NCBI GenBank assembly: GCA_964608065.1
Contig: CAZSMA010000001.1
Location: 16,572-66,759 of the forward strand
Length of the DNA stretch: 50,188 nt
Reading direction: 5' to 3'
DNA from: an uncultured Methanosarcinales archaeon
Lineage (GTDB): Archaea; Nanobdellota; Nanobdellia; Woesearchaeales; CAYXTQ01
In this document: piece after piece, positions 4 through 44,914 of the stretch
Layout: each line of letters opens with the position of its first letter
Numbering within the stretch: position 1 is the stretch's first letter
The notes under the pieces: model-generated
Databases searched by the model: none
Told to the model about the DNA's origin: nothing
Seen by the model: only the letters and a program-made list of their open reading frames with translations
Translations under genes and position numbers: made by a program

Positions 4-3000
4 TTAAACCTTACCATTATCCTTAACAATCTTAGCAGCACTCACAACTTTATCTCCTTCTGACAAATTCATTAACCTAACTCCTTGCGTGTTTCTTCCA
101 ATAACAGAAATATCTTTAGCTACAGTCCTTATTGCAATACCTTTCTTGCTCATAAACATCAATTCATCTTCTTCATTCAAAGACTTGACAGCAACAGCTT
201 TGCCGTTTCTATCAGAACATTGTATATTAATTACTCCTGATCCGCCTCTATGAATTAAACTATAGTCTGAAATCAAAGTCCTTTTCCCATAGCCATTCTC
301 AGTTATTGTCAATAATGTCTTTGAATCTTCAGCTATGACCATTCCAACAACTTCATCTGAAGCATCTTTCAATCTAATTCCTCTTACACCCATTGAACTT
401 CTTCCAGAAGCTCTTACATCTTTTTCACTAAACTTAACAGCATTTCCATTTTTTGTAGCAATCATTATATTATTATTTCCATCTGTCAAATTAACACCAA
501 CTAACTCATCATCTGATGTCAAAGTCAAAGCAATTATACCAGTTTTCCTTGGATTAGAAAACAAATTCAAAGGAATCCTTTTAACAGTACCTTTTTTAGT
601 TGCCATGACTAAATACAAACCTTCATCAAATCCTTTTACAGGAATAAACGCATTAACTTTCTCATCTTTTCCTAAAGGAAGCAGATTAACTATAGCCTTG
701 CCTGTTGCCTGCCTTGAAGTTTCAGGAATATGATAAACCTTCATCCAATAAATCTTTCCTTTATTTGTAAAAAACAAGATATAATCATGAGTATTTGCAA
801 TAAATAAATCCTCAACAAAATCCAGCTCCTTAGTTGTAGCTGCTATCACGCCCTTACCCCCTCTCTTCTGCCTCTTATAAGTATCAGGACTCAGTCTTTT
901 GATATAGCCTGCATTTGTTATACTTACAACCATCTGCTCATCTTCAATCAGATCCTCAACCTCTAATTCTTCATGAGACTCAACAATGCTTGTCTTCCTC
1001 TTGTCACCATACTCTTCTCTTATCTCCAGACTTTCTTTTTTAATAATATCCAGAACTTTCTGCTCAGAATCTAATATTGACTTTAACTCCTCAATCAATT
1101 TCAATAATGATTCATATTCTTTCTTTATCTTATCCTGCTCTAAAGAAGTTAATTTCTGTAATCTCATCTCTAATATAGCAACAGACTGCTCAGAACTTAA
1201 TTTATAATTACCCATCAAACCTTTCTTTGCTTCATCTACACTCTTGCTTCCTTTAATTAATTTAATTACATTGTCAATATTTTTCAAAGCAATTAACAAA
1301 CCATCAAGAATATGCTTCCTCTTTTCTGCTTTGTTCAAGTCAAACTTTGTCCTTTTAACAATAATATCTTTTCTATGATCAATATAATACTGTATCATTT
1401 CTTTAAGATTCAGAACTCTAGGCTGATTATCAACCAAAGAAAGCATTATAACTCCAAACGTAGTCTGTAATCTTGAATGTTTAAACAATTGATTTAGTGT
1501 AACATCAACATTGCCCCCCTGCTTTAACTCTATCACAATCCTCATTCCTTCCCTATCGCTTTCATCCCTTAAATCAGATATTCCTAAAACTTTTTTCTCT
1601 TTTACCATATATGCAATCTCTTTCATAAGCAGAGATTTATTGACCATATAAGGAATTTCAGTAACAATTATCTTTTTCTTGCCTTTAACTTCTTCAACTT
1701 CAGTTTTAGCCCTTACAGTCAATTTTCCTCTTCCGTTTTTATAACTGCTTTCAATACCTTGTCTTCCACATATCATACCACCAGTAGGAAAATCAGGACC
1801 TTTAACACTCTGCATTAATTCTCCAATTGTAGAATCAGGATTATCAATTAACTTGACAACACCATCAACTACTTCTGTAACATTATGTGGGGGAATATTA
1901 GTTGCCATTCCAACAGCAATCCCAGAACTTCCATTAATCAATAGATTAGGTAGTTTAGAAGGCAGAACAGAAGGTTCTTTCAGGCTTCCATCAAAATTAG
2001 GAACAAACTTTACTGTATCTTTTTCTATATCCTTCAGCATTTCTTCAGCTAATTTATTCATTCTTGCTTCAGTATTATGGTTAATGAACCCGTTAGCAAC
2101 AAAAGAATGACATTTACTGTTTACTTTTACAGAAAAAACTTCTTTTGTTTTTTTTTTTCCCCCTATTTCTGTTATTTGATCAAAATAGAAATTGTTTTTT
2201 AGAATAAAATCAATTAAAAGCTTATCTTCTTTATCAATTATTTTTATTAATCTTGCATAATTTCTTTTTAAAGAGTTATATCTGTCAAAATTGTAATGTT
2301 TTAATATGTATGAAGAATATTTGTTTCTCAGATAATCATTTAAGAAAGGTACAAAATCTGTTTTGCTTAATCTTGTAGGATTTATTTTTTTTATTGATTC
2401 TAAAATTTTATTTTTTCTATCTGAAAAAAATCCAATGTTCTTGTAAAACCTATATACGTTATCAAAACCTGGGACATAAATCTTAAAACATCTGTTTCTT
2501 TTATCTTGGTAAGGTTTTCCAGAGATTACTCCAAAGTTCAGCAATAATGTCTTTAATTGACTAATTAGCTTATCGCTTTTCGAATCATAAGTTAATTGTA
2601 CGCTTTTACCACCATGCCTTCTATCAACAACTAGTTGAGCACCTCCATCACCTTCGAATAAAGCTGTTAAAAATGATTTAATGTTTTCTTTAGTAGATAA
2701 AAGAACCGAAAAAGGAATTTCTTTTTCATGAGACTTATGAGATTTTAGACCTATATTATCTAGAAACATAACAATTTTTTGTTCATATATACTCAATTCA
2801 GTACATTTGCCTTTTATTTTTCTTTCGTATAATTGAACGCCTTTGAATTGAGATAAAATTATTGATTTAACTTTGTTATAAAATTCTTTATCTTGATTAT
2901 TGAATAAAATTTGTTTGTTGTGGAAGCTTCCTTCACTTACCAAAGCCCCTAATAAGAAAGCCAGTTCATTATTCATTATTGTTGGTAATTTTATATCATT

Positions 3001-3753
3001 TCTAAAGCCGGTTTTTGGAAAATATTTTTTTAAATCTAATGGTGTGTTACTGAAAAAGCTATGTTCTCTGTTTATGATAGCAATATCTCCTTCTTCTAAC
3101 TGTTCAAGAAGTTTCCATGATATTTTTGGTTTGAAATTGCCCCCTAATTTCCAAGTCAAGATTGGGTGGTTATAAGACCCCTCTATAGAATAACCGGATT
3201 TAGTAGCAATTCTGATGGTTTTGTGTTTTCCAGAGTTAAAGAATTTTGCTGCAGAGTTTTTTTTTCCGTTATAAGATTGTATTTTCATATCAATTAAAGC
3301 TTCCTTTTTGTTGGAAATACAACTTATAGGCAAAATACCTCGGTCTGTTAAAATTAATGAATCTCCTGTAATACAATACCTCATTGCTGCTGCTGAATCA
3401 CCATCTATACTTCCAAAATTACCCTGTCCTTGAATCAAAGGATATCTTAAAGAAAAATCCTGTGCCATTCTTACTAAAGCATCATAAACAGCAGTATCTC
3501 CATGTGGATGATATTTACCTAAAACCTCTCCAACAATTCTTGCGCATTTCTTATAAGCTTTGTTATGAAACATGCCCATATCATGCATTGCAAAAAGAAC
3601 TCTTCTGTGTACTGGCTTTAGCCCATCTCTTACATCAGGTAAAGCCCTTCCAACAATAACTGACATAGAATAATCTAAATAACTCTGCTTCATCTCTTCT
3701 TCAATTACTCTTTGCACTATTTTTTCCTTTATTTCAGCAGATTTATCATCCAT
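4..3753 (-). CDS. gyrA: DNA gyrase subunit A, interrupted in frame by an intein
   Basis: 1249-aa ORF. N-extein has GKYHPHGD...QGNFGS...AAMRY (catalytic Tyr). C-extein resumes [13 protein letters not shown], followed by a typical GyrA tower and C-terminal beta-pinwheel repeats. Confidence 0.95.
2074..3375 (-). mobile_element. GyrA intein (434 aa) with LAGLIDADG homing-endonuclease domain
   Basis: Starts [11 protein letters not shown] directly after AAMRY (Cys codon 3375-3373). Ends [10 protein letters not shown] (Asn codon 2076-2074), followed by Thr+1. Two LAGLIDADG blocks: [14 protein letters not shown] and [12 protein letters not shown]. Confidence 0.9.
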
Positions 3754-3844
3754 TTTTTTTTTCTACTTAGAATCCCCTGTAAATGCTAATACCTTTCTAT
3801 TTAAAAGTCTTTTGGTTCTAAAATGGCAATACAGCCTCTGTAAT

Positions 3845-3891
3845 GCCTGAATTCAAGCGAATTAGAAGTTCGAATATCAGTGAATTAGGGC
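3845..3891 (-). terminator. Imperfect 11-bp hairpin directly after the stop of the zinc-ribbon gene
   Basis: GCCTGAATTCA (3845-3855) pairs with TGAATTAGGGC (3881-3891), with one mismatch and one G-U. An inner CGAA/TTCG stem is present. No clear T-run follows. Confidence 0.25.
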
Positions 3892-4038
3892 CTATTTCAA
3901 CCTTTTGATTATACAATCTTTTACAGAAAAATTTCTTCCACAATATACGCATGATTTCCTTTTCTTAAACAATGTTTTGTCCCTAGTTTCATACTTCATA
4001 TTATGCTTGCATTTAGGGCATTTTAACAGAAATAACAT
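3892..4038 (-). CDS. Small zinc-ribbon protein (48 aa from internal Met)
   Basis: CPKC...(17 aa)...CVYC motif. Starting at MLFLLKCPKC avoids overlap with scpB (stop at 4043). TAG stop. Confidence 0.5.
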   Translation of the reverse strand: MLFLLKCPKCKHNMKYETRDKTLFKKRKSCVYCGRNFSVKDCIIKRLK

Positions 4039-4042
4039 CTTT

Positions 4043-5047
4043 TTATTTATTTTCTTCCCCCATATTCTCAAATTCTTCTTCACTAACTTCTTCATCTTCT
4101 TTATTCTTAGGAGGATGTATCAATTCATCTACTTTTTTATCAACTTTTTTCTCAAACTCTTCTTCTGCTTTCTTCTCCTCTAATTTTTCCATCATATCTT
4201 CTTCAAAATTTTCTGAAACTTCATCAACAACTCCTTCAGGAACTTCTTGAGGCACTTCTTCAAAATTTTCTTTTTTTTCTTTTTTCTCTTCCTCTGGCTC
4301 TTCAACCTTCTGCTCTGGTTCATCAAATACTTCTAGATTACCAAGTTTTTCTTTATCTTCAACAACTTCAATTTTTTTATCTTCCTCATAAACTTCTGGC
4401 TCATCAATTACTTCTAATTTTATTTTCTTGCCTTCTTCATCAACTAAATCTACTTCTTTTTCTTTAACTACTTCTGTCTTTTCTCCTTCCTTGGATTCCT
4501 CGCTCCTTTCCTTTTTCATCTTCTCGATAATCTCTTCTTTTTCTTCTATAGCATTAGCTAAACTGTCAAAGTCTTTAAACTTTTCTTTTAATTTATCTCT
4601 TGGAAGGTCAAAATAATCAAAAAATTTCTGGGCTAATTTTATCAACCTTGTTCTTCCATACTTCTGCCTTGTTATAAAACCCAGTTCTTCTAACTCTCTT
4701 AAATGATCATAAGCCTTGTTAGTCCTCATCTTGATAAGGTCTGCCTGTTTTATAGGATACTTGAATGCAATAACAGCCAGTGTTTCCATCAAAGTTTTAC
4801 TTAACTCAGTCTGTGTCACAATCGAAGAAACCAAAGACATATATCTATCTCTTACAGTCATTTTCCAATGATCGGCTTCTTGGATTAATTCAACACTTTC
4901 ATTGCCGTCATACTTTCTCTTTAATTCTTCCAATGATTTCTTAATATCCTCAACACTAACCTTAGTCAAATTGCTAATCTCATCTACATTCATACTTCTG
5001 CCTGAAGAAAACAGCAAAGCTTCAACTTTATTTATCACTTCTTGCAT
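4043..5047 (-). CDS. scpB: Segregation and condensation protein B-like (ScpB) with a ~185-aa acidic/K-rich tail
   Basis: MQEVINKVEALLFSSGRSMNVDEIS... plus a second wHTH (IKQADLIKMRTNKAYDHLRELEELGFI). The 17 codons upstream of Met18 are the translated repeat element, so the start is set at 5047. Confidence 0.75.
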   Translation of the reverse strand: MQEVINKVEALLFSSGRSMNVDEISNLTKVSVEDIKKSLEELKRKYDGNESVELIQEADHWKMTVRDRYMSLVSSIVTQTELSKTLMETLAVIAFKYPIKQADLIKMRTNKAYDHLRELEELGFITRQKYGRTRLIKLAQKFFDYFDLPRDKLKEKFKDFDSLANAIEEKEEIIEKMKKERSEESKEGEKTEVVKEKEVDLVDEEGKKIKLEVIDEPEVYEEDKKIEVVEDKEKLGNLEVFDEPEQKVEEPEEEKKEKKENFEEVPQEVPEGVVDEVSENFEEDMMEKLEEKKAEEEFEKKVDKKVDELIHPPKNKEDEEVSEEEFENMGEENK

Positions 5048-5050
5048 TTT

Positions 5051-5095
5051 CCAACGAAGTTGGTGCCGAAAATTATTTTTTCCTTCATTTTCAAG
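5051..5095 (+). repeat. Two-hairpin intergenic element, copy A
   Basis: CCAACGAAGTTGGTGCCGAAAAT-(13 nt)-ATTTTCAAG. Fills the gap between the stop at 5091-5093 and the scpB ATG at 5047. Confidence 0.8.
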
Positions 5096-5717
5096 CATAC
5101 TTATTCAAAGAATACTTTTCTCCTTCTAATTTAATCTTTCTTTTGTCATTCATTTCCTTGACAAAATTACCTAAGTGCTCTTCACCAATCCCAGTTATCT
5201 TTGCAATCTCTTTTAATGTCTTAGGTTTTCCTGATAAAGCTATTATTATCAGATTTCTTAACAAATTAGAAGCATTCTCATTCAATATCTGATTCTCAGC
5301 CCTTAATCCCTTCAAAACCATATCTGCTTTGTGAAGATGAGCTAATAAATCATTCAATAAATTTGCAAAATGATTAGTATCTAAATTCAAGCCTTTTGGT
5401 TCCAATATCTCTAAAGAAGAAGGCATATAATCAAAACAGAATCCAATTAATTTAGGTATATTCTTGAACAAAATTTCCATCTCAGTATAAGTGCTGAATA
5501 ATTTTCCTTTTTCCTTTACTTCCTTAAGCTCAACTTCTTTTGCCTTAAAAATATCGCATGACTTCAATATCAAATCTTTTCCTTCACTCTTTTTTATAGT
5601 TTCTATAACTAGCTGCATTGTCTTCTCTATATGGCTTTTGGGTGTTCCAGCTACTTCAACTATAGTTCTGCATAATATATAACCTTCATCTATCTTCTCT
5701 TTCAGTTTTTGATCCAT
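5091..5717 (-). CDS. Hypothetical protein with C-terminal winged-helix-like region, upstream partner of scpB
   Basis: 208-aa ORF with a GGAGGA SD about 10 nt upstream of the ATG. C-terminus reads LSGKPKTLKEIAKITGIGEEHLGNFVKEM. No motif I can assign. Confidence 0.6.
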   Translation of the reverse strand: MDQKLKEKIDEGYILCRTIVEVAGTPKSHIEKTMQLVIETIKKSEGKDLILKSCDIFKAKEVELKEVKEKGKLFSTYTEMEILFKNIPKLIGFCFDYMPSSLEILEPKGLNLDTNHFANLLNDLLAHLHKADMVLKGLRAENQILNENASNLLRNLIIIALSGKPKTLKEIAKITGIGEEHLGNFVKEMNDKRKIKLEGEKYSLNKYA

Positions 5718-5741: not shown

Positions 5742-5791
5742 AAAATTTCTATGAAATTTTCAAGACACCGAAAATTTGCAAACAAATTTTC
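5742..5791 (+). repeat. Variant two-hairpin element, copy G
   Basis: AAAATTTC-tat-GAAATTTT, then CAAG ACA CC, then GAAAATTTG-caaa-CAAATTTTC. Shares the TTTTCAAG and CCGAAAAT blocks with the main family. Confidence 0.6.
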
Positions 5792-5899
5792 CAGTGTTTT
5801 TGCACCATTCAAATCAAAGATTTTCATGGTTTTAGTATATCCATTAAAATAAGTATTATAAAAAGGTTTCTAAATTAGCTATAGAAATAATAATCACAT

Positions 5900-6980: not shown

Positions 6981-8063
6981 ATGAATTCAAGTAGGTTAAG
7001 TACTATAAAGAAAATAATTATTTTAATCGTCTTGTTATACATATTTCTGCTCAGTATAAACTTGATGGGCGCTTCTTTCAAGCTTTTTGGAAAAGATTTT
7101 GCTGAAACCTTGATTAAAACAACTTCTAACCCTTTTGTCGGTTTGTTGATAGGCATATTAGCAACATCTATTATCCAAAGTTCCTCAACAACAACTTCAA
7201 TAGTTGTAGGTAGTGTTGCAGGAGGTATATTAACACTTGGAGGCGCTATCCCTATAATAATGGGTGCTAATATCGGAACAACTGTAACAAACACAATTGT
7301 TTCTATGGGTCATATTGGTAGAAAACAAGAATTCAAAAGAGCATTTGCTGCAGCTACTGTCCATGATTTCTTTAATATATTAGCAGTCATAATCTTATTT
7401 CCATTAGAACTAAAAACACATTTTCTAGAAAAGTCTGCTTCTGTACTAGCTAACTTATTTGTTGGTGTTGGTGGCATCAAATTTTTAAGCCCTCTAAAAC
7501 TGATTACAGAACCTATGGTCCATTTAATAAAAAACTTAATACACAATCCAATAATAATGGTGATAATTTCATTGGTTTTATTGTTCTTCGCATTAGTCAC
7601 AATAGTAAAAATAATGAGGTCTTTAGTCCTGACTAAAATAGAAATTTTTTTAGACAATTATTTGTTTAAAAATGATTTTACAGCTTTTTTGCTTGGTATA
7701 ATATTCACAGCAGCTGTCCAAAGTAGTTCCATTACAACTTCATTAGTCATTCCTTTAGTTGGAGCTGGTTTATTAACAGTAAGAAAAATATTCCCCTATA
7801 CTCTAGGAGCTAATATTGGAACAACCATTACTGCAATCCTAGCTTCATTTGTAACCTTAAATCCAGTTGCTATTACAGTTGCTTTTGCTCATTTGTTATT
7901 TAATGTATTTGCTATTATTATATTATATCCAGTAAAAAAAGTACCTATTTGGTTAGCAGAGAGTTTTGCAAGATTAACTACAAAATCAAAGAAAAATACA
8001 ATCATATTTTTAATAATATATTTTTTATTACATATAGTTCCATTGGTTTTTATATTATTTTAA
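6981..8063 (+). CDS. Na+/phosphate cotransporter (NptA family)
   Basis: Duplicated QSSSTTTSIVVG / GANIGTTVTN and QSSSITTSLVIP / GANIGTTITA signatures. Polytopic membrane protein. Confidence 0.85.
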   Translation: MNSSRLSTIKKIIILIVLLYIFLLSINLMGASFKLFGKDFAETLIKTTSNPFVGLLIGILATSIIQSSSTTTSIVVGSVAGGILTLGGAIPIIMGANIGTTVTNTIVSMGHIGRKQEFKRAFAAATVHDFFNILAVIILFPLELKTHFLEKSASVLANLFVGVGGIKFLSPLKLITEPMVHLIKNLIHNPIIMVIISLVLLFFALVTIVKIMRSLVLTKIEIFLDNYLFKNDFTAFLLGIIFTAAVQSSSITTSLVIPLVGAGLLTVRKIFPYTLGANIGTTITAILASFVTLNPVAITVAFAHLLFNVFAIIILYPVKKVPIWLAESFARLTTKSKKNTIIFLIIYFLLHIVPLVFILF

Positions 8064-12357: not shown

Positions 12358-12392
12358 CCAACGTAGTTGGTTCCGAAAACTAAAAGTTTTCG
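12358..12392 (+). repeat. Two-hairpin intergenic element, copy B
   Basis: CCAACGTAGTTGGTTC then CGAAAACT-aaa-AGTTTTCG. Preceded by the palindrome GGTTAAA-A-TTTAACC (12342-12356). Confidence 0.75.
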
Positions 12393-12407
12393 ATACCAAA
12401 TTTTTAC

Positions 12408-12430
12408 CTTGAAAATGCATTAGCATTTTC
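12408..12430 (-). repeat. GAAAAT/ATTTTC hairpin unit in opposite orientation
   Basis: The minus strand reads GAAAATGC-taat-GCATTTTC-AAG. It overlaps the stop (12429-12431) of the upstream gene. Confidence 0.55.
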
Positions 12431-13013
12431 ATTGTATCATTCTAAATTTAATATTCTCTGTATTGTAAGTATTAACTTCAATTTCTTTTCCTTTTAAGTC
12501 ATATTCTGTAAAATTAATAAAAGCAGTAGACGCAGCCAATGTATCTTTTGCATCATAGCCTGCTATTAATAACTGATATTTTCCATAATTATTATACAAT
12601 CTAATCTTTGCAAAATCTTGTTTAAAACCAGAAGCACATTCTGGCCATGTCGTTGGCTCATTCATTATCCTTGCTGCTATTGGATTAGCACAAGGCCCGC
12701 CTACAATAATAATATTTTTCTCATACAAGTTAGTTATATCTCCTGGTCTTTTCAAAGGTTTTTCATAAATAAAATTCAAAATTTTTGCTTCACTAAAATT
12801 TCTACCAAGATAATACTCACTAAGCTTTAAGCCATTTATAATATTCAGAGCAGCAGGCGCATCTATATTATTATCTCCAATAACTAATATTGTATCAATA
12901 GTTCTATTGTTAATAAAAAAATTAGGATATTCAGTTAAATCAAAAGCAAGAACTATTGGTATTAAGATAATGAATATTAAGATTATTTTTTTTAAATCTA
13001 TTTTCATATTCAA
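12429..13013 (-). CDS. Secreted/anchored hypothetical protein
   Basis: N-terminal TM/signal IILIFIILIPIVLA. IIIVGGPCANPIAARIM motif. No enzyme motif. Confidence 0.55.
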   Translation of the reverse strand: MNMKIDLKKIILIFIILIPIVLAFDLTEYPNFFINNRTIDTILVIGDNNIDAPAALNIINGLKLSEYYLGRNFSEAKILNFIYEKPLKRPGDITNLYEKNIIIVGGPCANPIAARIMNEPTTWPECASGFKQDFAKIRLYNNYGKYQLLIAGYDAKDTLAASTAFINFTEYDLKGKEIEVNTYNTENIKFRMIQ

Positions 13014-13748: not shown

Positions 13749-14359
13749 TCATTAGGGTTTTTGTTCCACTCCAAAACCTTTTCTTTATCTTCTTCTTTAA
13801 TATAATTTTCTTTAGCAGCTTCATTAATCAAAGTTGAAAAATTAGTCAATGTAAACAAATTACAATTTGCTTCTTTAAAACCATTTAGACTTTTTTCCAT
13901 TTCATAAGTAAATATTGCAATACAATCCTCAACCACTCCATCTTGATCCCTTACTCCTTGTATTGCCCTCAAACTAGAACCTCCTGAACTAATTAAATCT
14001 TCAATAATCAAGACTTTCTGTCCTTTCTCTAATTTTCCCTCAACTAAATTTTCCTTTCCATGATCTTTTGATTTATTTCTGATATAAATCATGGGCTTCC
14101 TTAATTTTTCAGCAATCCAACTAGCCCAACATATCCCTGAAGTTGCTATTCCTCCAATAACATCAAACTTTAATTTATTCTGTTTTATTGTTTTAACAAA
14201 AAACTTTACAATTTTCTCTCTTTCTTTTGTATAACTCATCAAAATTCTATTATCACAATATATAGGACTTAATATTCCAGAAGCAAAAGTATACAGCTTA
14301 CCAGGACTTAAAGTAACTGCTTTAACATTCAATAATATTCTTGCAACTTCTTCCTTCAT
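13736..14359 (-). CDS. pyrE: Orotate phosphoribosyltransferase
   Basis: PRPP-binding loop VLIIEDLISSGGSS. Sits within the pyr operon. Confidence 0.9.
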   Translation of the reverse strand: MKEEVARILLNVKAVTLSPGKLYTFASGILSPIYCDNRILMSYTKEREKIVKFFVKTIKQNKLKFDVIGGIATSGICWASWIAEKLRKPMIYIRNKSKDHGKENLVEGKLEKGQKVLIIEDLISSGGSSLRAIQGVRDQDGVVEDCIAIFTYEMEKSLNGFKEANCNLFTLTNFSTLINEAAKENYIKEEDKEKVLEWNKNPNEWKP

Positions 14360-15660
14360 TCTACCACCTTATCTTCATTAGTATCTTCATTAATATTTAT
14401 ATCTTTTCCTTCTTCTTCTACATTTTCCTCTTTAACTTCTTCTTTGACTTCAACTTTCTTTTTCTTAAAAGGATTTTCTTTCTCAATCTGAATTTCCTTA
14501 GCTTTAATATCATTTATCTTACCATTCTCAAAAATAATCTTTCCATTGACAATAGTCATAACAGGCCATCCTTTCAGTTTCCATCCATTAAAAGGGCTCC
14601 AGCCACATTTTGTAAACAATTCCTCATCTTTAACCTCTTTCTCAAGATTCATATCAACAATAACCACATCAGCATCATAACCTTCTTCCAGATGACCTTT
14701 ATTCTTAATCTTAAATATCTTAGCAGGATTATGACAGCAAAGCTCAACTAATTTCTGCAAACTTAACTTCTCTTTATTCACAGCATCTAGCATTAAAGGC
14801 AACAAAGTCTCAACACCAGGCACACCATAAACCTCTTCTTTCTTATCCTCTTTTGTATGTGGAGCATGGTCACTTCCTATTGTATTAACTTTTCCAGACT
14901 TTATAGCATCCCAAAGCGCTTGCTGATCTTCTTTACTTTTAAGGCAAGGTTTCATCTTAAAGAAATTGTTCTTCTCATCCTCTTTTGTCAGAAACAAATG
15001 ATGTGGAGTAACTTCAACAAAAGCCTTATGCTTAACCTTGCTTTTAATCATCTTCAGTTCTTCAGCAGCAGAAATATGGCATAAATATAATTTATTCTTT
15101 GTATTAGAAATAAGCTCTAAAGCTTTAGCAATATTCTCACCTTCTGCATGAACTGAAACAACCATATAGCTGGAAAAAGCATTCTGCAAAACACTTGTAT
15201 CTTCCATTAATAATTCTCCTGTTGTTATATCCATAAAAACCTTTACAGAAGCAATATTCTTCACTTTCTTTATTTCATCTAATTTACCATCTGAAGCTCC
15301 AAAATGAAAACCATAATTTACAACTGATTTCTTAGCTAACTCTCTTTTCTGCTCCAACAACTCAGCTGTTACTGTTGGAGGATTTGTATTAGGCATATCT
15401 AAAACAGTTGTTACACCACCTGCTGCTGCTGCTTTTGAACCACTAAAAAAATCTTCTTTTTGAGTCAATCCAGGCTCTCTAAAATGAACATGAGGGTCTA
15501 TCACACCAGGTAAAATAATTTTCCCAGAAGCATCAATAACCTTATCAACAGTAACTATCTCACTAGTTATTTCATTAATTATATTGTCTGTTATCAAAAT
15601 ATTTTTCTCTACTAATTCTCCTTCTTGCAAAATTTTTCCGTTTTTGATTAACAATGACAT
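14356..15660 (-). CDS. pyrC: Dihydroorotase with K/E-rich C-terminal tail
   Basis: VIDPHVHFREPG, amidohydrolase His/Asp pattern (SDHAPH). About 45-aa low-complexity tail. Confidence 0.9.
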   Translation of the reverse strand: MSLLIKNGKILQEGELVEKNILITDNIINEITSEIVTVDKVIDASGKIILPGVIDPHVHFREPGLTQKEDFFSGSKAAAAGGVTTVLDMPNTNPPTVTAELLEQKRELAKKSVVNYGFHFGASDGKLDEIKKVKNIASVKVFMDITTGELLMEDTSVLQNAFSSYMVVSVHAEGENIAKALELISNTKNKLYLCHISAAEELKMIKSKVKHKAFVEVTPHHLFLTKEDEKNNFFKMKPCLKSKEDQQALWDAIKSGKVNTIGSDHAPHTKEDKKEEVYGVPGVETLLPLMLDAVNKEKLSLQKLVELCCHNPAKIFKIKNKGHLEEGYDADVVIVDMNLEKEVKDEELFTKCGWSPFNGWKLKGWPVMTIVNGKIIFENGKINDIKAKEIQIEKENPFKKKKVEVKEEVKEENVEEEGKDININEDTNEDKVVE

Positions 15661-15661
15661 C

Positions 15662-16426
15662 TTATTTATAGTACTCCTTCAAACTAACCTTCTCACCTGT
15701 CTTCAACAAAGCGCTTTTCCCAAAATCTTTCATCTTCCTCAACTGTTTTGAATTAAATACTGGACCATCTTTGCAAACTAGTCTATCACCACAAGCACAA
15801 CTTCCGCAAACTCCCAAACCGCAGAACATATACCTCTCCAACGAAACTTCACAATAAATATTATGCTTCTCGCAAATATCAAAAACAGCTTTCATCATCA
15901 TCTCAGGACCAACAGCATAGACAGCATCAAACTTTCTTTCTTTCAACAACTTCTCCAGCATCTGTGTTGTAAACCCTCCAAAACCTTTGCTGCAGTCATC
16001 AGTACAGATATGAGGATTATACTTCTTTAACTTATTCTCAAACAACAACAGATTGCAAGTCCTTGCTCCTTGTATAACAACCGCATTTTCTAACTTCTCA
16101 ATCAATCCTAGTAAAGGTACTATCCCTAATCCTCCAGCTATAACACAAGCATTCTTCTTAACAGAAAAACCATTTCCATAAGGCCCTCTAATTCCAATTT
16201 TATCTCCTACTTTCAACTTAAACATAGCTATAGTAAACTTTCCTTTTTTCTCTATTGTAAATCCATTAGAATAAGAAAGTGCAAAAGGCTTTTCGTCAAC
16301 TCCAGGAAACCACACCATAAAAAACTGTCCTGGATTACATTTAATTTTTTTATCTATAAAAAATGTCTTAACACTATTATTCTCACTTACAATTAGTTTT
16401 ATATTTACAATCTCTGGAATTTCCAT
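15662..16426 (-). CDS. pyrK: Dihydroorotate dehydrogenase electron-transfer subunit
   Basis: FAD/NAD-binding fold and C-terminal 2Fe-2S motif CGLGVCGSCAC. Confidence 0.9.
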   Translation of the reverse strand: MEIPEIVNIKLIVSENNSVKTFFIDKKIKCNPGQFFMVWFPGVDEKPFALSYSNGFTIEKKGKFTIAMFKLKVGDKIGIRGPYGNGFSVKKNACVIAGGLGIVPLLGLIEKLENAVVIQGARTCNLLLFENKLKKYNPHICTDDCSKGFGGFTTQMLEKLLKERKFDAVYAVGPEMMMKAVFDICEKHNIYCEVSLERYMFCGLGVCGSCACGDRLVCKDGPVFNSKQLRKMKDFGKSALLKTGEKVSLKEYYK

Positions 16427-17774: not shown

Positions 17775-17822
17775 CTGTTAAAACCCCCAGTTTTAATATT
17801 GAAAATATGAAATGTTTTCATA

Positions 17823-24056: not shown

Positions 24057-24437
24057 ATGCCCAAGGCTGAAAAAGAAAAAAAATTCTATGTAGGATTAAA
24101 TAATCCTTCAAGTATAAGAAGAAATCTGCTTGAAGCTTCTAAAGATATTATAAAATCCCTGCAGAGATATGAAAAATCTAAGAGTATAAGGAAGGAAAAG
24201 ATTGAAACAATATTTGAAGTAAGAAAAATTATAAGGGACATTAAAAAAAATATTTCTTTATTAAATTCAAAATTACCTGGTTTCCCAAATGAAATTAAAA
24301 GAAAAGTAAGAAAAGAGAAAGTAAAGGTTGATCCTGAACTAAAAAAAGAGATAGAACATGCAAAGTCTTCTGAATTAAAGAAATTAGAAGATGAACTCAA
24401 GAATATTGAAGGTGAGCTAAGTAAGCTAGGCTCTTAA
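24057..24437 (+). CDS. Hypothetical K-rich coiled-coil protein
   Basis: 126-aa ORF starting 2 nt after the previous stop. Same strand-plus-long-helix pattern (KKFYVGLNNPSSIRRNLLEASKDIIKSL). Confidence 0.6.
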   Translation: MPKAEKEKKFYVGLNNPSSIRRNLLEASKDIIKSLQRYEKSKSIRKEKIETIFEVRKIIRDIKKNISLLNSKLPGFPNEIKRKVRKEKVKVDPELKKEIEHAKSSELKKLEDELKNIEGELSKLGS

Positions 24438-24439
24438 TT

Positions 24440-24479
24440 CCAACGAAGTTAGTGCTTAAAATCATTTATGATTTTCAAG
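24440..24479 (+). repeat. Two-hairpin intergenic element, copy C (slightly degenerate)
   Basis: CCAACGAAGTTAGTGCTTAAAATC-atttat-GATTTTCAAG, followed by T16 (24480-24495). Confidence 0.7.
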
Positions 24480-25682
24480 TTTTTTTTTTTTTTTTATTTT
24501 TTTAATTTTAAAATAAAAAATAAAAACCATGTTTATTAATATTAACACTGCTAATACTATTATAAAAGTATTATCCTTTTTCTCCTCATTCTCCTCTTTT
24601 GCTTCAATTTTCTCTATATACCTATCTTCATCAGATACATTCATAATAATTTCTAATTCTGCTGTTGGAGCTGTTCCTGTAAAATGTCCATCTGGAACAT
24701 ACCTTGCAATAATCTTAGTCTTATGAACTCCTAGATCCATCTCTTTTGGAAGTACAATTTCATACTCTATCTCTTCAAACTCCTTGTCTGGTTCAAATTC
24801 AACAAAAGAGTTATGTAATGTTATGCTATTATTCAACACACCTTCCACATACACCACAACATTGAAATCCTTGTTTTCACTATTCAATATTCTGAATGTC
24901 TTTTTAGTATAAAGGCCTGGTTCAAATATTATTGTTTCTGTCTTAGGATCCATATCCAAATCAATGATATCCACTGCAAAATATTCTATGGAATCTAATC
25001 TAACTTCTGTATCTTTCAGTTCAAATCTTAATTTATATGATTCCTGCTCGTGGTTGAGATAACATGACTCCATACAATCTCTGCTAAGATTTACTTTATC
25101 CTTGCCTTCTTCTTTATAATAAATCAAATAGTCTTTAGTGTCTGTAACTAAATATATCTTAGCATAACCTTTTCCAGTAATCTCTCCTGATAACATTACT
25201 GAATTTAATTTTCCAGGTTTTGTTGGAATCCACACATACTCTGAAGAATTATTAAACCCTAAACTCACCTTATCAGTATTTGCAACAACTTCTCCAAAAG
25301 TAACATAACCGGTTGTTTCAGGCTTAAAAAAAATAAAAGAACCTATCATTAAAGCAACAATTAGTACAGGTATCAAATATACAATCTTATTTGGTCCTTT
25401 AGATAATCTATCAATACTTAAATTATATTCTCTAATTTTGTCAGAATAAATTTCTATATAATTATCATATTCTTTTAACCAGCTGTCTAAAGGCCTGTTG
25501 CTTAAACCCTTGTTCAGATAATGATAATACTTATCAAAACTTATTTGATTATTTTCTAATCTTAACTTTAAATCATATACAAAATTAACTAGCTTATTCT
25601 TGTAATTATAGCAAAGCCTTATTCTTCTGTCTACTTTTTCTATCTTCCCCCTTATATTTTTTATTTTGCTTTGCTTATTCAT
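24462..25682 (-). CDS. Hypothetical bitopic membrane protein (cytoplasmic N-domain, beta-rich ectodomain, C-terminal TM anchor with poly-Lys tail)
   Basis: TM segments IVYLIPVLIVALMIGSFIFF and FIIVLAVLILINMVFIFYF. ATGA overlap with the upstream HTH gene. Confidence 0.65.
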   Translation of the reverse strand: MNKQSKIKNIRGKIEKVDRRIRLCYNYKNKLVNFVYDLKLRLENNQISFDKYYHYLNKGLSNRPLDSWLKEYDNYIEIYSDKIREYNLSIDRLSKGPNKIVYLIPVLIVALMIGSFIFFKPETTGYVTFGEVVANTDKVSLGFNNSSEYVWIPTKPGKLNSVMLSGEITGKGYAKIYLVTDTKDYLIYYKEEGKDKVNLSRDCMESCYLNHEQESYKLRFELKDTEVRLDSIEYFAVDIIDLDMDPKTETIIFEPGLYTKKTFRILNSENKDFNVVVYVEGVLNNSITLHNSFVEFEPDKEFEEIEYEIVLPKEMDLGVHKTKIIARYVPDGHFTGTAPTAELEIIMNVSDEDRYIEKIEAKEENEEKKDNTFIIVLAVLILINMVFIFYFKIKKIKKKKKLENHK

Positions 25683-33451: not shown

Positions 33452-33525
33452 TTTCCAATGGTAATAATAGCAAACTTTAAATACTTTAACATTTTAGGTT
33501 TACTTAAAATTAAAGGGTGATATTA

Positions 33526-33807
33526 ATGCTAAAGATGAAAAGAATAAGTGAAACTTATGATATGAAGGTGTTTACTGACACTGGTGAATATTTTGGAGAT
33601 GTTGAAGAAAGCATAGTTACAAAAAATAAAATATTTGGATGGAGAGTAAGAGCAACAAAAAGCTCATTCTTAACCAAAGTCCTTGGAAGCGCAAAAGGAG
33701 TTATTGTTCCACACCAACTAGTCAAAAGCATTGGAGATGTAATGATTATCAGCAAAGCAGCAGTCCCAAGTTATAGTCCTGAAGAAGACTCATCAGAAGC
33801 AGAGTAA
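33526..33807 (+). CDS. PRC-barrel domain protein
   Basis: MKVFTDTGEYFGDVEESIV...VIVPHQLVKSIGDVMII. AAGGGTGAT SD lies 5 nt before the ATG at 33526. Confidence 0.7.
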   Translation: MLKMKRISETYDMKVFTDTGEYFGDVEESIVTKNKIFGWRVRATKSSFLTKVLGSAKGVIVPHQLVKSIGDVMIISKAAVPSYSPEEDSSEAE

Positions 33808-33809
33808 TT

Positions 33810-33851
33810 CCAACGTAGTTGGTACCGAAAATCCATTTTTAGATTTTCAAG
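33810..33851 (+). repeat. Two-hairpin intergenic element, copy D
   Basis: CCAACGTAGTTGGTACCGAAAATC-cattttta-GATTTTCAAG. Starts 2 nt after the TAA stop. Confidence 0.8.
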
Positions 33852-33859
33852 TTTTTTTT
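33852..33859 (+). terminator. T8 tract following copy D
   Basis: Hairpin followed by TTTTTTTT, which is an archaeal oligo-T termination signal. Confidence 0.5.
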
Positions 33860-38680: not shown

Positions 38681-40150
38681 ATGATTGATAAAAGCACTTT
38701 ATTGACTTATTACAAAAGAAAAGACATACAGGAAGAGATCATAGCTAATGCAAAGAACAGAGAAATAGCTATAAAATTCGGTGATAAAGGCTTTGGTCAA
38801 AGACCTGATATTCTGCAATATCCTGGAGATATATTAGAATTAGCAAAACAAGGAGCAACTTCCTTCCATGCTTCTGAAGAACTATGGAGCAACCCATTAA
38901 GACTAACTCCAGATATGAAAAGAAGAGAACTTGAAGATCTAAGGATTGGATGGGATTTAGTTATTGACATTGACAGCCCTATCTGGCACTTATCAAAAAT
39001 AACTGCATGGCTTATTATAAAATCTTTAAAAGAGCACAATATCATATCAATCTCAGTAAAATTCTCAGGAAACAAAGGATTCCATATAGGTGTTCCTTTT
39101 GAAGCTTTCAAAAAAGAAAACAAAACAGAATTTCCTGAAATACCAAAAAAAATTGCCCTATACCTTCTAGACTATATTGGAAAAAAACATGTTAAAATTA
39201 TAAATAATGAACTAAAGTTTGGAAAAAAGTTCAAGATCAATATAAACAAACTAAGTAAAACTATGGGCAAAAGTATTGATGACCTGAGTTACTGGTTTTG
39301 CACTAGCTGTGAAAAAAAAATTGAAAAAAAAAGTGAACAGCAGGAAGAATACATCCTAAGCAGCGACGATATTGACTTTATCAATGAACCTCACCAAAAA
39401 AAGAAAATAAAAAAAGAGACATTTAAAAAAAAATTATGCAGCTGCAAGAATCCTGAATACATAAAGAAATTTAATCCTGCATCTATAATAGATATTGACA
39501 CAATCTTAATCTCATCAAGACATCTTTACAGAACACCTTACTCTCTTCATGAAAAATCAGGCTTAGCTTCTATACCAACAGACCCTGAAAAAATATTAAA
39601 TTTTGATGTAAAGCTTGCTGACCCTAATAAAGTCAAAGTGTCTAAATTCAGGTTTTTAGACAAAAGCAAAATTAAAATCAATGAAGCCTCTAATCTGTTG
39701 AATGCTGCTCTTGCATTCCATCCTGAAGAAAAAGGAGAAATAAACCTAAAGAGAGCGTATGATATACCAACAACAGCATTGCCTGAAAAATTTTTCCCAC
39801 CTTGCATGAAAAAAATTATAAAAGGTGACTTAGAGGATGGAAAAAAAAGATCATTGTTCACATTAATCAATTTCTTAAGCTCTGTTGGCTGGAGTTATGA
39901 TAAAATTGAATCCTTCCTCAAAGAATGGAATAAAAAAAACAAGGAACCTCTAAGAGATAATTACTTGTTTGGGCAACTACGTTACCATAAACAACAAAAA
40001 AAGAAAATACCTCCTGCTAACTGCGACAATTCAATGTATTATAAAGACCTAAGATTTTGCATCCCTGATAACCTGTGCAATAAGATAAAAAATCCTGTTA
40101 ATTACAGCAGAAGAAGAGTTTTTTACCTAAATAAGAGTAAAAAACAATAA
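38681..40150 (+). CDS. priS: Single-chain archaeo-eukaryotic primase: PriS catalytic domain fused to a PriL-like Fe-S C-terminal domain
   Basis: AEP motifs WDLVIDID, FSGNKGFHIGV and SSRHLYRTPYSLHEKSG. Cys pairs CTSC/CSC. C-terminal FFPPCMKKIIKG...KRSLFTLINFL...PPANC..(11)..C..(5)..C. Confidence 0.85.
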   Translation: MIDKSTLLTYYKRKDIQEEIIANAKNREIAIKFGDKGFGQRPDILQYPGDILELAKQGATSFHASEELWSNPLRLTPDMKRRELEDLRIGWDLVIDIDSPIWHLSKITAWLIIKSLKEHNIISISVKFSGNKGFHIGVPFEAFKKENKTEFPEIPKKIALYLLDYIGKKHVKIINNELKFGKKFKININKLSKTMGKSIDDLSYWFCTSCEKKIEKKSEQQEEYILSSDDIDFINEPHQKKKIKKETFKKKLCSCKNPEYIKKFNPASIIDIDTILISSRHLYRTPYSLHEKSGLASIPTDPEKILNFDVKLADPNKVKVSKFRFLDKSKIKINEASNLLNAALAFHPEEKGEINLKRAYDIPTTALPEKFFPPCMKKIIKGDLEDGKKRSLFTLINFLSSVGWSYDKIESFLKEWNKKNKEPLRDNYLFGQLRYHKQQKKKIPPANCDNSMYYKDLRFCIPDNLCNKIKNPVNYSRRRVFYLNKSKKQ

Positions 40151-40155
40151 CCTAT

Positions 40156-40200
40156 GAAAAACTTCGTTTTTCAAGGTCCCGAAAATATATAAACATTTTC
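40156..40200 (+). repeat. Variant two-hairpin element, copy F
   Basis: GAAAAAC-ttc-GTTTTTC, then AAG GTC CC, then GAAAAT-atataaac-ATTTTC. The following GATACC is shared with copy B. Confidence 0.6.
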
Positions 40201-40215
40201 GATACCTTTATAAAT
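40179..40215 (+). promoter_or_regulatory. Candidate BRE/TATA promoter(s) upstream of the ribosomal protein operon
   Basis: CCGAAAATATATAAAC (BRE-like CCGAAA + TATA) and a second TTTATAAAT at 40207-40215. Both lie about 200 nt upstream of the uL3 ATG. Confidence 0.45.
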
Positions 40216-40416
40216 GACTGCTGAATTCTTAGCCTAAACCTAAAAGTAGCGTTTATTTAACATTAAAACGTTATAGTTCACATAAAACAAGCCTGAAAAG
40301 TAGCTTCTTTTCAGTACAGTTTTTTATTTAACTAACTGTCTTTCTACAAGAAGCTTCACAAAAAGGCTTTTTATGCAAAAGTAAAAGCATATTAGCTTTA
40401 CTTATCTAAATAAAAA

Positions 40417-42218: not shown

Positions 42219-42220
42219 AA

Positions 42221-42257
42221 CCAACGAAGTTGGTGCCGAAAACCGGAGGTTTTCAAG
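42221..42257 (+). repeat. Two-hairpin intergenic element, copy E (uL4/uL23 spacer)
   Basis: CCAACGAAGTTGGTGCCGAAAACC-gga-GGTTTTCAAG. The 22-mer is identical to copy A. Contains the GGAGG SD of uL23. Confidence 0.85.
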
Positions 42258-42258
42258 C

Positions 42259-42519
42259 ATGGACCCTTACAAAATAATCAAATATCCAACATCAACTGAA
42301 AAATCAATAAGGTTGATGGAATCAGAAAATAAACTGATGTTTGTTGTAGATAAAAAAGCAACTAAAGCCGATATTAAAAAAAGCATTGAGAAAATTTTCA
42401 AAGCAAAAGTGATAGATGTTAACACATTTAATGATCAGCACGGAAATAAAAAAGCTTATGTTAAATTCAGTGATACAACACCTGCAATAGATATTGCAAC
42501 TGAAATGGGTCTGATGTAA
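42259..42519 (+). CDS. rpl23: 50S ribosomal protein uL23
   Basis: IIKYPTSTEKSIRLMESENKLMFVVDKKATKADIKKSIEKIF. Confidence 0.95.
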   Translation: MDPYKIIKYPTSTEKSIRLMESENKLMFVVDKKATKADIKKSIEKIFKAKVIDVNTFNDQHGNKKAYVKFSDTTPAIDIATEMGLM

Positions 42520-43679: not shown

Positions 43680-44180
43680 ATGTCAAAAACAAAATATTCA
43701 ATGAAAGATTACAATAAGGAAACAATGGCTAAGTCTATTGGGTCTTCATTGTCAATATCCACAAGACACAGCATAGAGATTTGTAATTTCATTAGAAACA
43801 AGAACTTAAGCAAAGCAAGAGACTTGCTAAATGATGTTGTAAGTGAGAAAAAGGCATTACCATTCAAAAGATTCACAGGTGGTGTAGGTCATAGAAAAGA
43901 AAACGGCCCAGGAAGATATCCAAAAAAAGCAACAATAGAATTCATAAAATTACTTGACACTGTTGAAGCTAATGCTCAATTCAAAGGTCTTAACACATCA
44001 GGTTTATTCATTAAACATATTTGCGCTAATAACGCCTCAAGACAATGGCGTTATGGCAGGCAAAAAAGAAGAAAAATGAAACGAACGCATGTCGAAGTTG
44101 TAGTTGAAGAAAAAAGCAGTAAGAAAGAAGTCAAAAAAGTAGAAACAAAAACACAAGAGAAAAAGGAACAAAAAAAATGA
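43680..44180 (+). CDS. rpl22: 50S ribosomal protein uL22 (K/E tail)
   Basis: AKSIGSSLSISTRHSIEICNFIRNKNL..A...L and operon position. Confidence 0.92.
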   Translation: MSKTKYSMKDYNKETMAKSIGSSLSISTRHSIEICNFIRNKNLSKARDLLNDVVSEKKALPFKRFTGGVGHRKENGPGRYPKKATIEFIKLLDTVEANAQFKGLNTSGLFIKHICANNASRQWRYGRQKRRKMKRTHVEVVVEEKSSKKEVKKVETKTQEKKEQKK

Positions 44181-44914
44181 TCGAAAGGAAATTCATAGAA
44201 CAAAAAGTGAAGGAATTTCAGATACAGGAGTTCATAGCTAAAAATCTGAAAAGGGTAGGTCATAGTCATACAAGATTACAAAGAACACCTTTAGGAGACA
44301 AAATAATTATTTATGCTTCACGTCCTGGACTAATAGTTGGAAGAAAAGGACAGAGTATAAAGAAACTAACAAAAAGCCTTAAGAAAAAATTTGATTTAGA
44401 AAATCCTCAAATAGAAATAAGTGAGATTGAAGAAGTCAACTTAGATGCTCGGATAGTTGGAGAACGCATTGCTAATACATTAGAAAGATTTGGAAGTACA
44501 AAGTTCAAAGGAATAGGTCACAAGGTTATGACAGATGTTTTGAATAGCGGTGCTTTAGGAATAGAAATCCTAATCTCAGGTAAAATACCTAGTGCAAGAG
44601 CCAAGAACTGGAGATTTTATTCGGGTTACTTAAAAAAGTGCGGAGACGTAGCATTAGGGGTAAGAAGGTCATATACAAGTGCTCAGTTAAAAACAGGAAT
44701 GGTAGGCATTAAAGTCAGTATAATGCCTCCAGACATAAAGCTGCCCGATAAAGTTACGATTTTAGATAAAAAAGTTGAAATTGTAGAAGAACTTAAAGAT
44801 AAAGAATCCGAAGAAGTTGAAAAAGAAATTAAAGAAAAAAAAGGGAAAGAAGAAAAGAAGCCTAAAGTTGAGGAGAAAAAAGCAAGCCTCAATAAAGAAG
44901 AAAAGAAAAAATGA
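44177..44914 (+). CDS. rps3: 30S ribosomal protein uS3 (K/E tail)
   Basis: KH domain: LGDKIIIYASRPGLIVGRKGQSIKKL. Confidence 0.95.
   Translation: MIERKFIEQKVKEFQIQEFIAKNLKRVGHSHTRLQRTPLGDKIIIYASRPGLIVGRKGQSIKKLTKSLKKKFDLENPQIEISEIEEVNLDARIVGERIANTLERFGSTKFKGIGHKVMTDVLNSGALGIEILISGKIPSARAKNWRFYSGYLKKCGDVALGVRRSYTSAQLKTGMVGIKVSIMPPDIKLPDKVTILDKKVEIVEELKDKESEEVEKEIKEKKGKEEKKPKVEEKKASLNKEEKKK

Follow-up and report, generated by a model that had tools for sequence, protein, structure and literature searches.

A 39-Nucleotide Two-Hairpin Repeat in a uL4/uL23 Spacer and Its Relatives: A Probable REP/RPE-Like Miniature Insertion Element of Woesearchaeota

Genes and Repeat Copies in the Window

The window, meaning the whole stretch of 50,188 nucleotides that was analysed, has a G+C content of about 31%, and its genes include a gyrase with an intein, ScpB, a fused PriS-PriL primase, and Hef; its uL4 has its best similarity to proteins labelled Candidatus Woesearchaeota. 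Among the ribosomal protein genes uL3, uL4, uL23, and uL2 (identified by Pfam), the 40-nt spacer that separates the uL4 stop codon from the uL23 ATG is filled by a two-hairpin element, copy E, and five full copies of this element (A to E) are present in the window, all of them on the + strand (Table 1). An earlier note on this DNA had listed the five copies, a 22-mer and an end common to A and E, and a GGAGG motif in the loop and 3' arm of hairpin 2 of copy E, and each of these was found again: A and E share CCAACGAAGTTGGTGCCGAAAA and end alike in TTTTCAAGCAT. With CCAACGWAGTTRGT as the hairpin-1 pattern, up to two mismatches allowed, and 100 shuffles as the background, 6 matches were obtained versus 0.42 expected, a number that none of the 100 shuffles reached, and these comprise the five copies and a palindromic reverse match of E. 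Similarly, the hairpin-2 pattern CCGAAAAY-N3-20-RTTTTC has 6 matches in the window versus 0.06 expected. A covariance-model search, as proposed in the same note, recovered exactly the five copies at 45–60 bits, together with one degenerate copy, and matched further loci outside the window.

The copies occupy different kinds of spacers. Copy A supplies the stop codon TGA (5093-5091) of an MJ0538-like gene, and copy B, which joins hairpin 1 to a variant hairpin 2 with the 3' end GATACC, lies between two minus-strand genes, S-layer-like and radical SAM; the GATACC tail also occurs in the module at 40179-40206. Copies C and D each begin 2 nt past the stop codon of the preceding gene, copy C inside the downstream T-run of that gene and copy D with a T8 after it. 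The whole of copy E folds at -13.7 kcal/mol, and its GGAGG is partly sequestered in the hairpin. The degenerate copy is a hairpin-2-type module, ACA-C-CGAAAAT...ATTTTC-CAG-TGT, without a canonical hairpin 1, and the two tandem modules upstream of the uL3 operon read GAAAAAC-TTC-GTTTTTC and CCGAAAAT..ATTTTCGATACC.

Apart from the repeats, gyrA is split by an intein that includes a LAGLIDADG homing-endonuclease domain, and upstream of gyrA lie a conserved non-coding sequence and a small zinc-ribbon reading frame. In the uL3 operon leader, a hairpin, AAGCCTGAAAAG..CTTTTCAGTACAG, is conserved between the window and its closest relative (L057 2940-3125), in which the leader has two additional hairpin modules. 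Rfam searches at an E-value threshold gave no match either upstream of gyrA or in the uL3 leader.

Table 1. Positions of the repeat copies, related modules, and neighbouring features in the window.
Feature	Position	Strand	Remarks
gyrA with intein	4-3753	-	
Conserved non-coding sequence	3754-3891		About 140 nt, upstream of gyrA
Zinc-ribbon ORF	3892-4038	-	48 residues, CxxC...CxxC; between scpB and gyrA; conserved in L062, L063
scpB, public gene call	4043-5098	-	351 aa
Copy A	5051-5097	+	47 nt, loop TATTTTTTCCTTC; covariance model 55.8 bits; antisense, between MJ0538-like gene and scpB
MJ0538-like gene	5091-5717	-	208 aa
Degenerate relative	5760-5797	+	Covariance model 23.8 bits, E 9e-5
Copy B	12358-12396	+	39 nt; covariance model 48.6 bits
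Hairpin-2-type module	12409-12431		
pyrC	14356-15660	-	Without element
pyrK-like gene	15662-16426	-	Without element
Hairpin-2-type module	17801-17819		
Gene before copy C	24057-24437		
Copy C	24440-24481	+	Degenerate (GTTAG, CTT); covariance model 45 bits
PRC-barrel gene	33517-33807		
Copy D	33810-33853	+	44 nt, outer stem TAC/GT; covariance model 52.9 bits; RNA/DNA folds
Primase, small and large subunits fused	38681-40150	+	489 residues; fusion conserved in L057
Two tandem hairpin modules	40155-40206	+	Upstream of uL3 operon; related modules, not full copies
uL3 operon leader	40230-40416	+	
uL4 stop codon	42216-42218	+	
Copy E	42221-42259	+	Canonical 39 nt, uL4/uL23 spacer; covariance model 60.5 bits, E 3e-15
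Copy E, hairpin 1	42221-42233	+	RNA and DNA folding
Copy E, outer stem	42234-42236 with 42257-42259	+	TGC pairs with GCA
Copy E, inner stem	42238-42244 with 42248-42254	+	Loop GGA, 42245-42247
Copy E, SD-like GGAGG	42245-42249	+	Loop and 3' arm of hairpin 2
Copy E, last A	42259	+	A of uL23 ATG
Empty uL22/uS3 junction	44170-44185	+	A8-TGA overlap

Structure of the Element

Canonically, the unit measures 39 nt (13 codons) and runs from CCAAC to AAGCA, with the general form CCAAC-GNA-GTTGG followed by YRC-C-GAAAAY-loop-RTTTTC-R-A-GYR; in the consensus, the outer triplets are TGC and GCA, and a T usually comes next. In hairpin 2, a 3-bp outer stem (TGC/GCA) and one further pair, C-G or U-A, are followed by a bulged A, the inner stem GAAAAY/RTTTTC, and a free loop. 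Both hairpins are predicted by folding as RNA or as DNA, both strands fold, and wobble pairs favour neither strand; as the inner stem is self-complementary, the hairpin folds in either orientation.

The pairing was assessed by covariation among 41 distinct copies, in which 95.6% of cells are paired versus 29–43% when the partners are slid by one to three columns. Compensatory changes on both sides occur at 8 pairs, at values that 0 of 500 shuffles reached, and the view that structure rather than loop sequence is conserved is supported. Three forms of the hairpin-2 outer stem occur, TGC/GCA, TAC/GTA, and CGC/GCG; the adjoining pair is C-G in 22 sequences and U-A in 6, and hairpin 1 has the fully compensated variants TCCAC/GTGGA and ACTAC/GTAGT. 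As a result, the CC and AAG that the earlier note had described as unpaired must be redrawn, since they belong mostly to an extended covarying helix in which a single A is bulged. The G and A of the triloop and its closing C-G pair are invariant, with a free middle base; C-GNA-G triloops are classic hyper-stable DNA mini-hairpins, typical of single-strand DNA signals. The loop of hairpin 2 can be as short as 3 nt or, where structures nest, reach about 70 nt, and several loop classes recur across genomes, namely short loops, TTTTTTCCTT, loops of about 16 nt with a GTCTGT motif, and loops containing GGAGG. Terminal inverted repeats are absent, the termini CCAACG and CAAGCA not being complementary, and the inverted repeat is internal, made by the arms of hairpin 2.

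A search of the whole window with Rfam 15 at the gathering score gave 0 matches, and around copy E an E-value threshold yielded chance-level matches only (E of 1 or more). On inspection of the consensus, K-turn, SECIS, attC, and bulge-helix-bulge readings were dropped because their register or geometry is unsuitable. A link to tRNA or split tRNA was likewise set aside, as the window has no tRNA and 45 loci yielded a single unrelated one, and a protein-coding repeat is ruled out because loop lengths differ and several frames are used.

Occurrence in Other Genomes

Exact-pattern scans returned 19 loci in species-representative genomes and 37 metagenome loci, of which about two thirds of the latter are true copies and the remainder are chance matches or a coding repeat (L-numbers below label the related genome and metagenome loci compared with the window). 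The genome loci come from Woesearchaeota, Nanoarchaeota, and MAGs labelled 'uncultured Methanosarcinales'; one of the MAGs so labelled, CAYXTQ, has a uL4 that is 77% identical to that of the window. Across 43 related loci, the covariance model, which was built from the aligned 41 distinct copies, gave 47 matches of at least 43 bits, plus weaker variants. The element is found in at least 7 Woesearchaeota/Nanoarchaeota MAGs and about 24 metagenome contigs, with a modest 4–7 canonical copies per MAG as exact-pattern matches in CAYXTQ, CAYVTQ, and JADFLA. Nested or tandem copies are present at L021, L031, L043, L019, and L038, and copies occupy the same site in different genomes at L005/L045, L040/L048, and L017/L033. 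Viral contigs contained no copy, and the literature that could be searched yielded neither the motif nor an account of an element of this kind.

Modules of the hairpin-2 type without hairpin 1 (xyz-C-GAAAAY-loop-RTTTTC-RA-z'y'x') lie between genes, singly or in tandem arrays, both in the window at 5760-5797, 12409-12431, 17801-17819, and 40155-40206 and elsewhere (L057 9340-9465; L016 7100-7230; L007 4650-4780); their outer triplets differ but compensate, and they look like a broader related module family. At L012, a pair of 240-nt inverted repeats (2855-3098 and 7249-7513), 86–90% complementary and each with two element variants in opposite orientation, brackets 4.2 kb of housekeeping genes. 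An autonomous element with cargo was considered there and rejected, as the repeats enclose housekeeping genes and no transposase; a second candidate, at L041, has hairpin 1 and the 5' arm with no matching 3' end, in an unrelated context. Positions 4575-4745 (-) of L018 hold what resembles a tRNA gene, with at least one long intron and the acceptor ends GCGGGG...CCCCGCA; ARAGORN made no call for it, and an element copy lies in its downstream T-run.

Occupied and Empty Sites

The three closest relatives, L057, L058, and L060, whose uL4 is 77–81% identical to that of the window, have the uL4/uL23 junction without copy E. Their spacers are 2, 11, and 9 nt long and consist of A's only (TAA-A(n)-ATG); in L057 the junction reads TAA-AA-ATG, and in the window these flanks stand on either side of the element. 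The expectation that this junction is normally almost spacer-free is borne out in these three relatives, where the spacer proposed for checking lacks the element. Longer uL4 homologues (292–324 aa) were also considered as possible read-through products of the element, and they have ordinary K/E/P-rich tails only.

Other sites tell the same way. Copy C interrupts a T-run that is unbroken in the syntenic L018 (TCTTAA-T18), and taking out the 47 nt of copy A restores AAG-TAA-AA-ATG, i.e., the upstream stop codon, a 2-nt spacer, and the scpB start; with copy A in place, the MJ0538-like gene ends two codons later, at the TGA inside the element. The same junction in L062 and L063 has other spacers and a conserved ScpB N-terminus. 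Conversely, the uL22/uS3 junction, which is empty in the window, holds a 39-nt copy in L030 and L055 that matches E without a difference over 40 nt. This copy supplies the final 13 residues of uL22 there and leaves the ATGA overlap intact (uS3 80% and uL22 64% identical to the window). In L057, four hairpin modules lie between uL24 and S4e, genes that overlap in the window. No target duplication was seen in the comparisons of E with L057/L058/L060, of L051 with L022, of C with L018, or in the reconstructed site of A. To judge by these sequence comparisons, the element behaves as an insertion and not as conserved operon sequence, and we infer its mobility from differences between species (uL4 77–81%, uS3 80% identity).

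As for the gene beside copy A, the public scpB call starts at an ATG inside the element and is 17 residues too long; the true initiation codon is the ATG at 5047, for a protein of 334 aa whose N-terminus, MQEVINKVEAL, is conserved with relatives.

Copies Inside Genes

The element had been thought to be strictly intergenic, which does not hold elsewhere, as copies in either orientation lie in-frame in pyrC, pyrK, nop5, uL1, uL22, D-aminoacyl-tRNA deacylase, and transketolase. Four different reading frames are used, and 5 of the 7 coding copies are antisense. In L022, for instance, an antisense copy in pyrC adds MLKNQRFSAPTAL, and in L051 an antisense copy in the pyrK-like gene, read in a frame differing from that of pyrC, adds AGKSKIFGTNSVG as an exact 39-nt insertion relative to L022. 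The uL22 copy is read as PTKLVPKTGGFQA, the deacylase copy (L039) is sense, and the uL1 copy lies in the tail of the protein (L016/L027). The copy at the N-terminus of the transketolase C-terminal subunit (L040/L046/L048) differs by 3 nt between two relatives, and that in nop5 (L008) lies inside the Nop domain match, in a protein whose 49% identity to its L012 counterpart is too divergent for sizing the insertion. Pfam matches extend across the insert in pyrC and nop5, and the four other host genes scanned have the expected Pfam family beside it (uL22 was outside the scan). The pyrC, uL1, deacylase, and nop5 proteins, the four that were looked up, appear exactly as translated in public gene calls, and uL1 and the deacylase with the insert are present in several independent assemblies.

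The length of the element is divisible by three at 37 of 43 distinct sites (33, 36, 39, 42, 45, 51, 54, 93, and 108 nt), and each copy has on average 4.07 stop-free frames, versus 2.6 in shuffles and 2.9 in random 39-mers of the window. The L051 copy has CCAGCA in place of CAAGCA, which removes a TGA in the frame that is read. These sequence features argue that the in-gene copies are translated rather than spliced out and that the family has been shaped by residence in coding DNA.

Insertion Sites, Orientation, and Alternative Roles

A T follows the element at 33 of 42 sites, A or T occupies the three positions preceding it at about 88% of sites, and homopolymer runs host many copies, from which we infer a preference for A/T-rich sites immediately 5' of a T. 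The uniform + orientation reported earlier stands within the window, where it persists across a switch in gene orientation and leaves A and B antisense to their flanking genes, but not as a general rule, since orientations are mixed in L005, L009, and L012. The top strand of the element is the locally T-rich strand at 28 of 43 sites (p = 0.07, a trend only), and this trend may explain why A, B, and the copies in terminator T-runs, C and D, are all on the + strand.

A host cis-acting RNA element, i.e., a processing site, 3'-end stabiliser, terminator helper, or translation-initiation module, would account for C and D, which precede T-runs in the manner of a hairpin with oligo-U, and for the copies with GGAGG or AGAGG loops (E, L030/L055, L005/L045), which are sense and place AGC-ATG at a start codon; the self-complementary inner stem would moreover let such a signal fold either way round. 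However, an RNA signal would hardly be expected in both orientations relative to genes, as in A, B, and most coding copies, nor within essential genes, where the element is read through in four frames under length and stop-codon constraints. Close relatives keep the genes without the element at the same junctions, and no Rfam family corresponds to it, which together make this explanation unlikely.

A strand-specific DNA site for a chromosome-organising or replication protein, e.g., a loading or priming signal, is suggested by the five full and the degenerate window copies, which all remain on the + strand whichever way the genes run, and by the C-GNA-G triloop, which background knowledge associates with single-strand DNA signals. 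However, the copies are not conserved at orthologous positions, and their orientations are mixed in L005, L009, and L012; the loop of 3 to about 70 nt, the nested copies, the copies within coding sequences, and the low copy number per MAG add to the difficulty, and we regard this role as quite improbable.

The archaeal bulge-helix-bulge intron has two 3-nt bulges with a 4-bp helix between them. Small independent RNA genes, or mini-introns cut out by the archaeal splicing endonuclease, could explain the compact, conserved, covarying structure and the T-runs beside many copies, but are very improbable, as no promoter-like context is evident and several copies lie 0–2 nt past a stop codon within operons, the consensus has, in place of a bulge-helix-bulge, either a 1 x 2 internal loop or just one bulged A, with a 7-bp inner stem, and splicing needs neither the lengths divisible by three nor the open frames, such as the one kept free of TGA in L051.

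A Putative Route of Insertion and Persistence

The uL4/uL23 spacer probably represents one copy of a woesearchaeal family of REP/RPE-like miniature insertion elements, and the element is best regarded as selfish DNA of the small palindromic kind rather than as a signal that regulates the ribosomal protein operon. Three roles had been proposed at the outset: the REP/MITE-like selfish repeat is upheld by presence and absence at orthologous sites, nesting, genome-specific subfamilies, both orientations, and in-frame copies, and RNA processing or stability and a fixed protein-binding site are unsupported as its primary identity.

Copy E would have entered TAAAA^TG between uL4 and uL23, whereby its terminal A would rebuild the uL23 ATG and its loop would bring GGAGG 9 nt upstream. 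In the relatives, uL23 translation probably depends on the stop-start distance of 2–11 nt; since copy E would rebuild the ATG and carries GGAGG, translation of uL23 could still start. The element itself would be non-autonomous, and an enzyme acting in trans would copy it, recognising its top strand in the form of folded single-stranded DNA. Mobilisation in trans via a folded DNA strand is suggested by the C-GNA-G triloop, by the lack of inverted repeats and target duplication, and by parallels with IS200/IS605 and REP/RAYT, and by analogy with these systems a single-stranded DNA hairpin is probably the mode of action. In a tblastn search for a Y1 TnpA over 383 kb from many genomes, four IS200/IS605 TnpA queries had no match below E = 0.5, and no transposase or other candidate enzyme was found in the same 383 kb; with neither terminal inverted repeats nor target duplication, no known transposition chemistry is demonstrated. 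A novel class of ultra-small hairpin transposons in DPANN archaea, 13 codons long, coding-compatible, and moved in the form of folded single-stranded DNA by an enzyme that has so far had no link with transposition, is a tentative proposal that we hold possible and somewhat doubtful.

Insertions would survive only where they do no harm, namely in terminator T-runs, at stop-start junctions, in surface loops, and in protein tails. All loops with GGAGG or AGAGG lie directly before a start codon, which points to selection for harmless insertions or else to a subfamily that was pre-adapted. Given these loops and the persistence of copies at the same site, some individual copies may have been co-opted.

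Implications for DPANN Genomes

DPANN genomes are tiny, densely packed, and usually thought to be poor in repetitive DNA, and small palindromic selfish DNA of the REP/RPE kind would now extend to them. A 39-nt element would be tolerable inside ribosomal proteins, Nop5, and enzymes of pyrimidine synthesis, and it corrupts gene calls: scpB is too long, and uL22, uL1, and others carry element-derived peptides in public databases. Insertion sites could be used as strain and lineage markers, and the putative enzyme recognising a C-GNA-G DNA mini-hairpin gives enzyme discovery a definite target. Copies with their own Shine-Dalgarno sequence and a rebuilt start codon would offer a route by which insertions into operons are neutralised or co-opted. 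If the ultra-small transposon were real, it would be an archaeal counterpart of RPEs and a source of small protein insertions and ready-made ribosome-binding sites.

Comparison with Known Systems

Miniature inverted-repeat elements (MITEs; Correia, ERIC, and Woesearchaeal ones) are similarly non-autonomous, multi-copy, and mostly intergenic, with occasional in-frame fusions. However, MITEs have terminal inverted repeats and target-site duplications, neither of which was found here, and usually measure 50–500 bp, so that an element of 39 nt lies below their size ranges as described (PMC10969869, PMC11602168). About 105 MITEs per Mb were found in one Woesearchaeal genome by MITE-Tracker (PMC11602168).

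Like the present element, IS200/IS605 elements and their miniature derivatives (PATEs) have neither terminal inverted repeats nor target duplication, possess hairpins near the ends, and insert strand-specifically beside a short A/T-rich target. In IS200/IS605, however, similar left and right hairpins lie tens of bases apart and flank a specific 4–5 nt target, whereas this element spans 39 nt in all, has two unlike hairpins, and shows a clear preference only for the T after it; its flank logo shows nothing beyond A/T at -3 to -1 and T at +1 (33/42). According to a 2018 survey, the IS200 type is the only archaeal subclass of Y1 TnpA, and the RAYT type was not reported in Archaea (PMC6006769).

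REP and REPIN sequences are likewise imperfect palindromes of 20–40 nt in which a bulge asymmetry gives orientation, and they are multi-copy, persistent through speciation, thought to act as single-stranded DNA hairpins, and free of target duplication. REPs are extragenic and of high copy number, with a single-copy Y1 (HUH) RAYT gene flanked by REPs in the same genome. The present element has the size and imperfect palindrome of a REP, with only 4–7 canonical copies per MAG by exact pattern, but its ends are CCAAC... and ...AGCA instead of a GTAG or CGTC head (GTAG is present only when T is the free triloop base, e.g., in copies B and D), it forms no inverted REP pairs, and several copies are also inside genes.

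The Rickettsia palindromic elements (RPEs; described in PMC10969869) are short palindromic selfish repeats that occur between genes and in-frame in unrelated housekeeping genes, add a tolerated peptide, have no transposase gene associated with their copies, and reside in host-dependent organisms with small genomes. A palindromic repeat in-frame in protein-coding genes is equally found here, in seven gene contexts. RPEs, however, are about 100–150 bp long and fall into defined sequence families in alphaproteobacteria, whereas this element is of 39 nt, archaeal (DPANN), unrelated in sequence, outside their sequence families, sizes, and Rickettsia hosts, and built of two unlike hairpins; RPEs are read as one conserved peptide, and this element is read in several frames and both orientations. 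The element is an analogue of RPEs and not a member; by analogy, RPEs are its closest functional counterpart, and REP/RAYT is closest in size and presumed chemistry.
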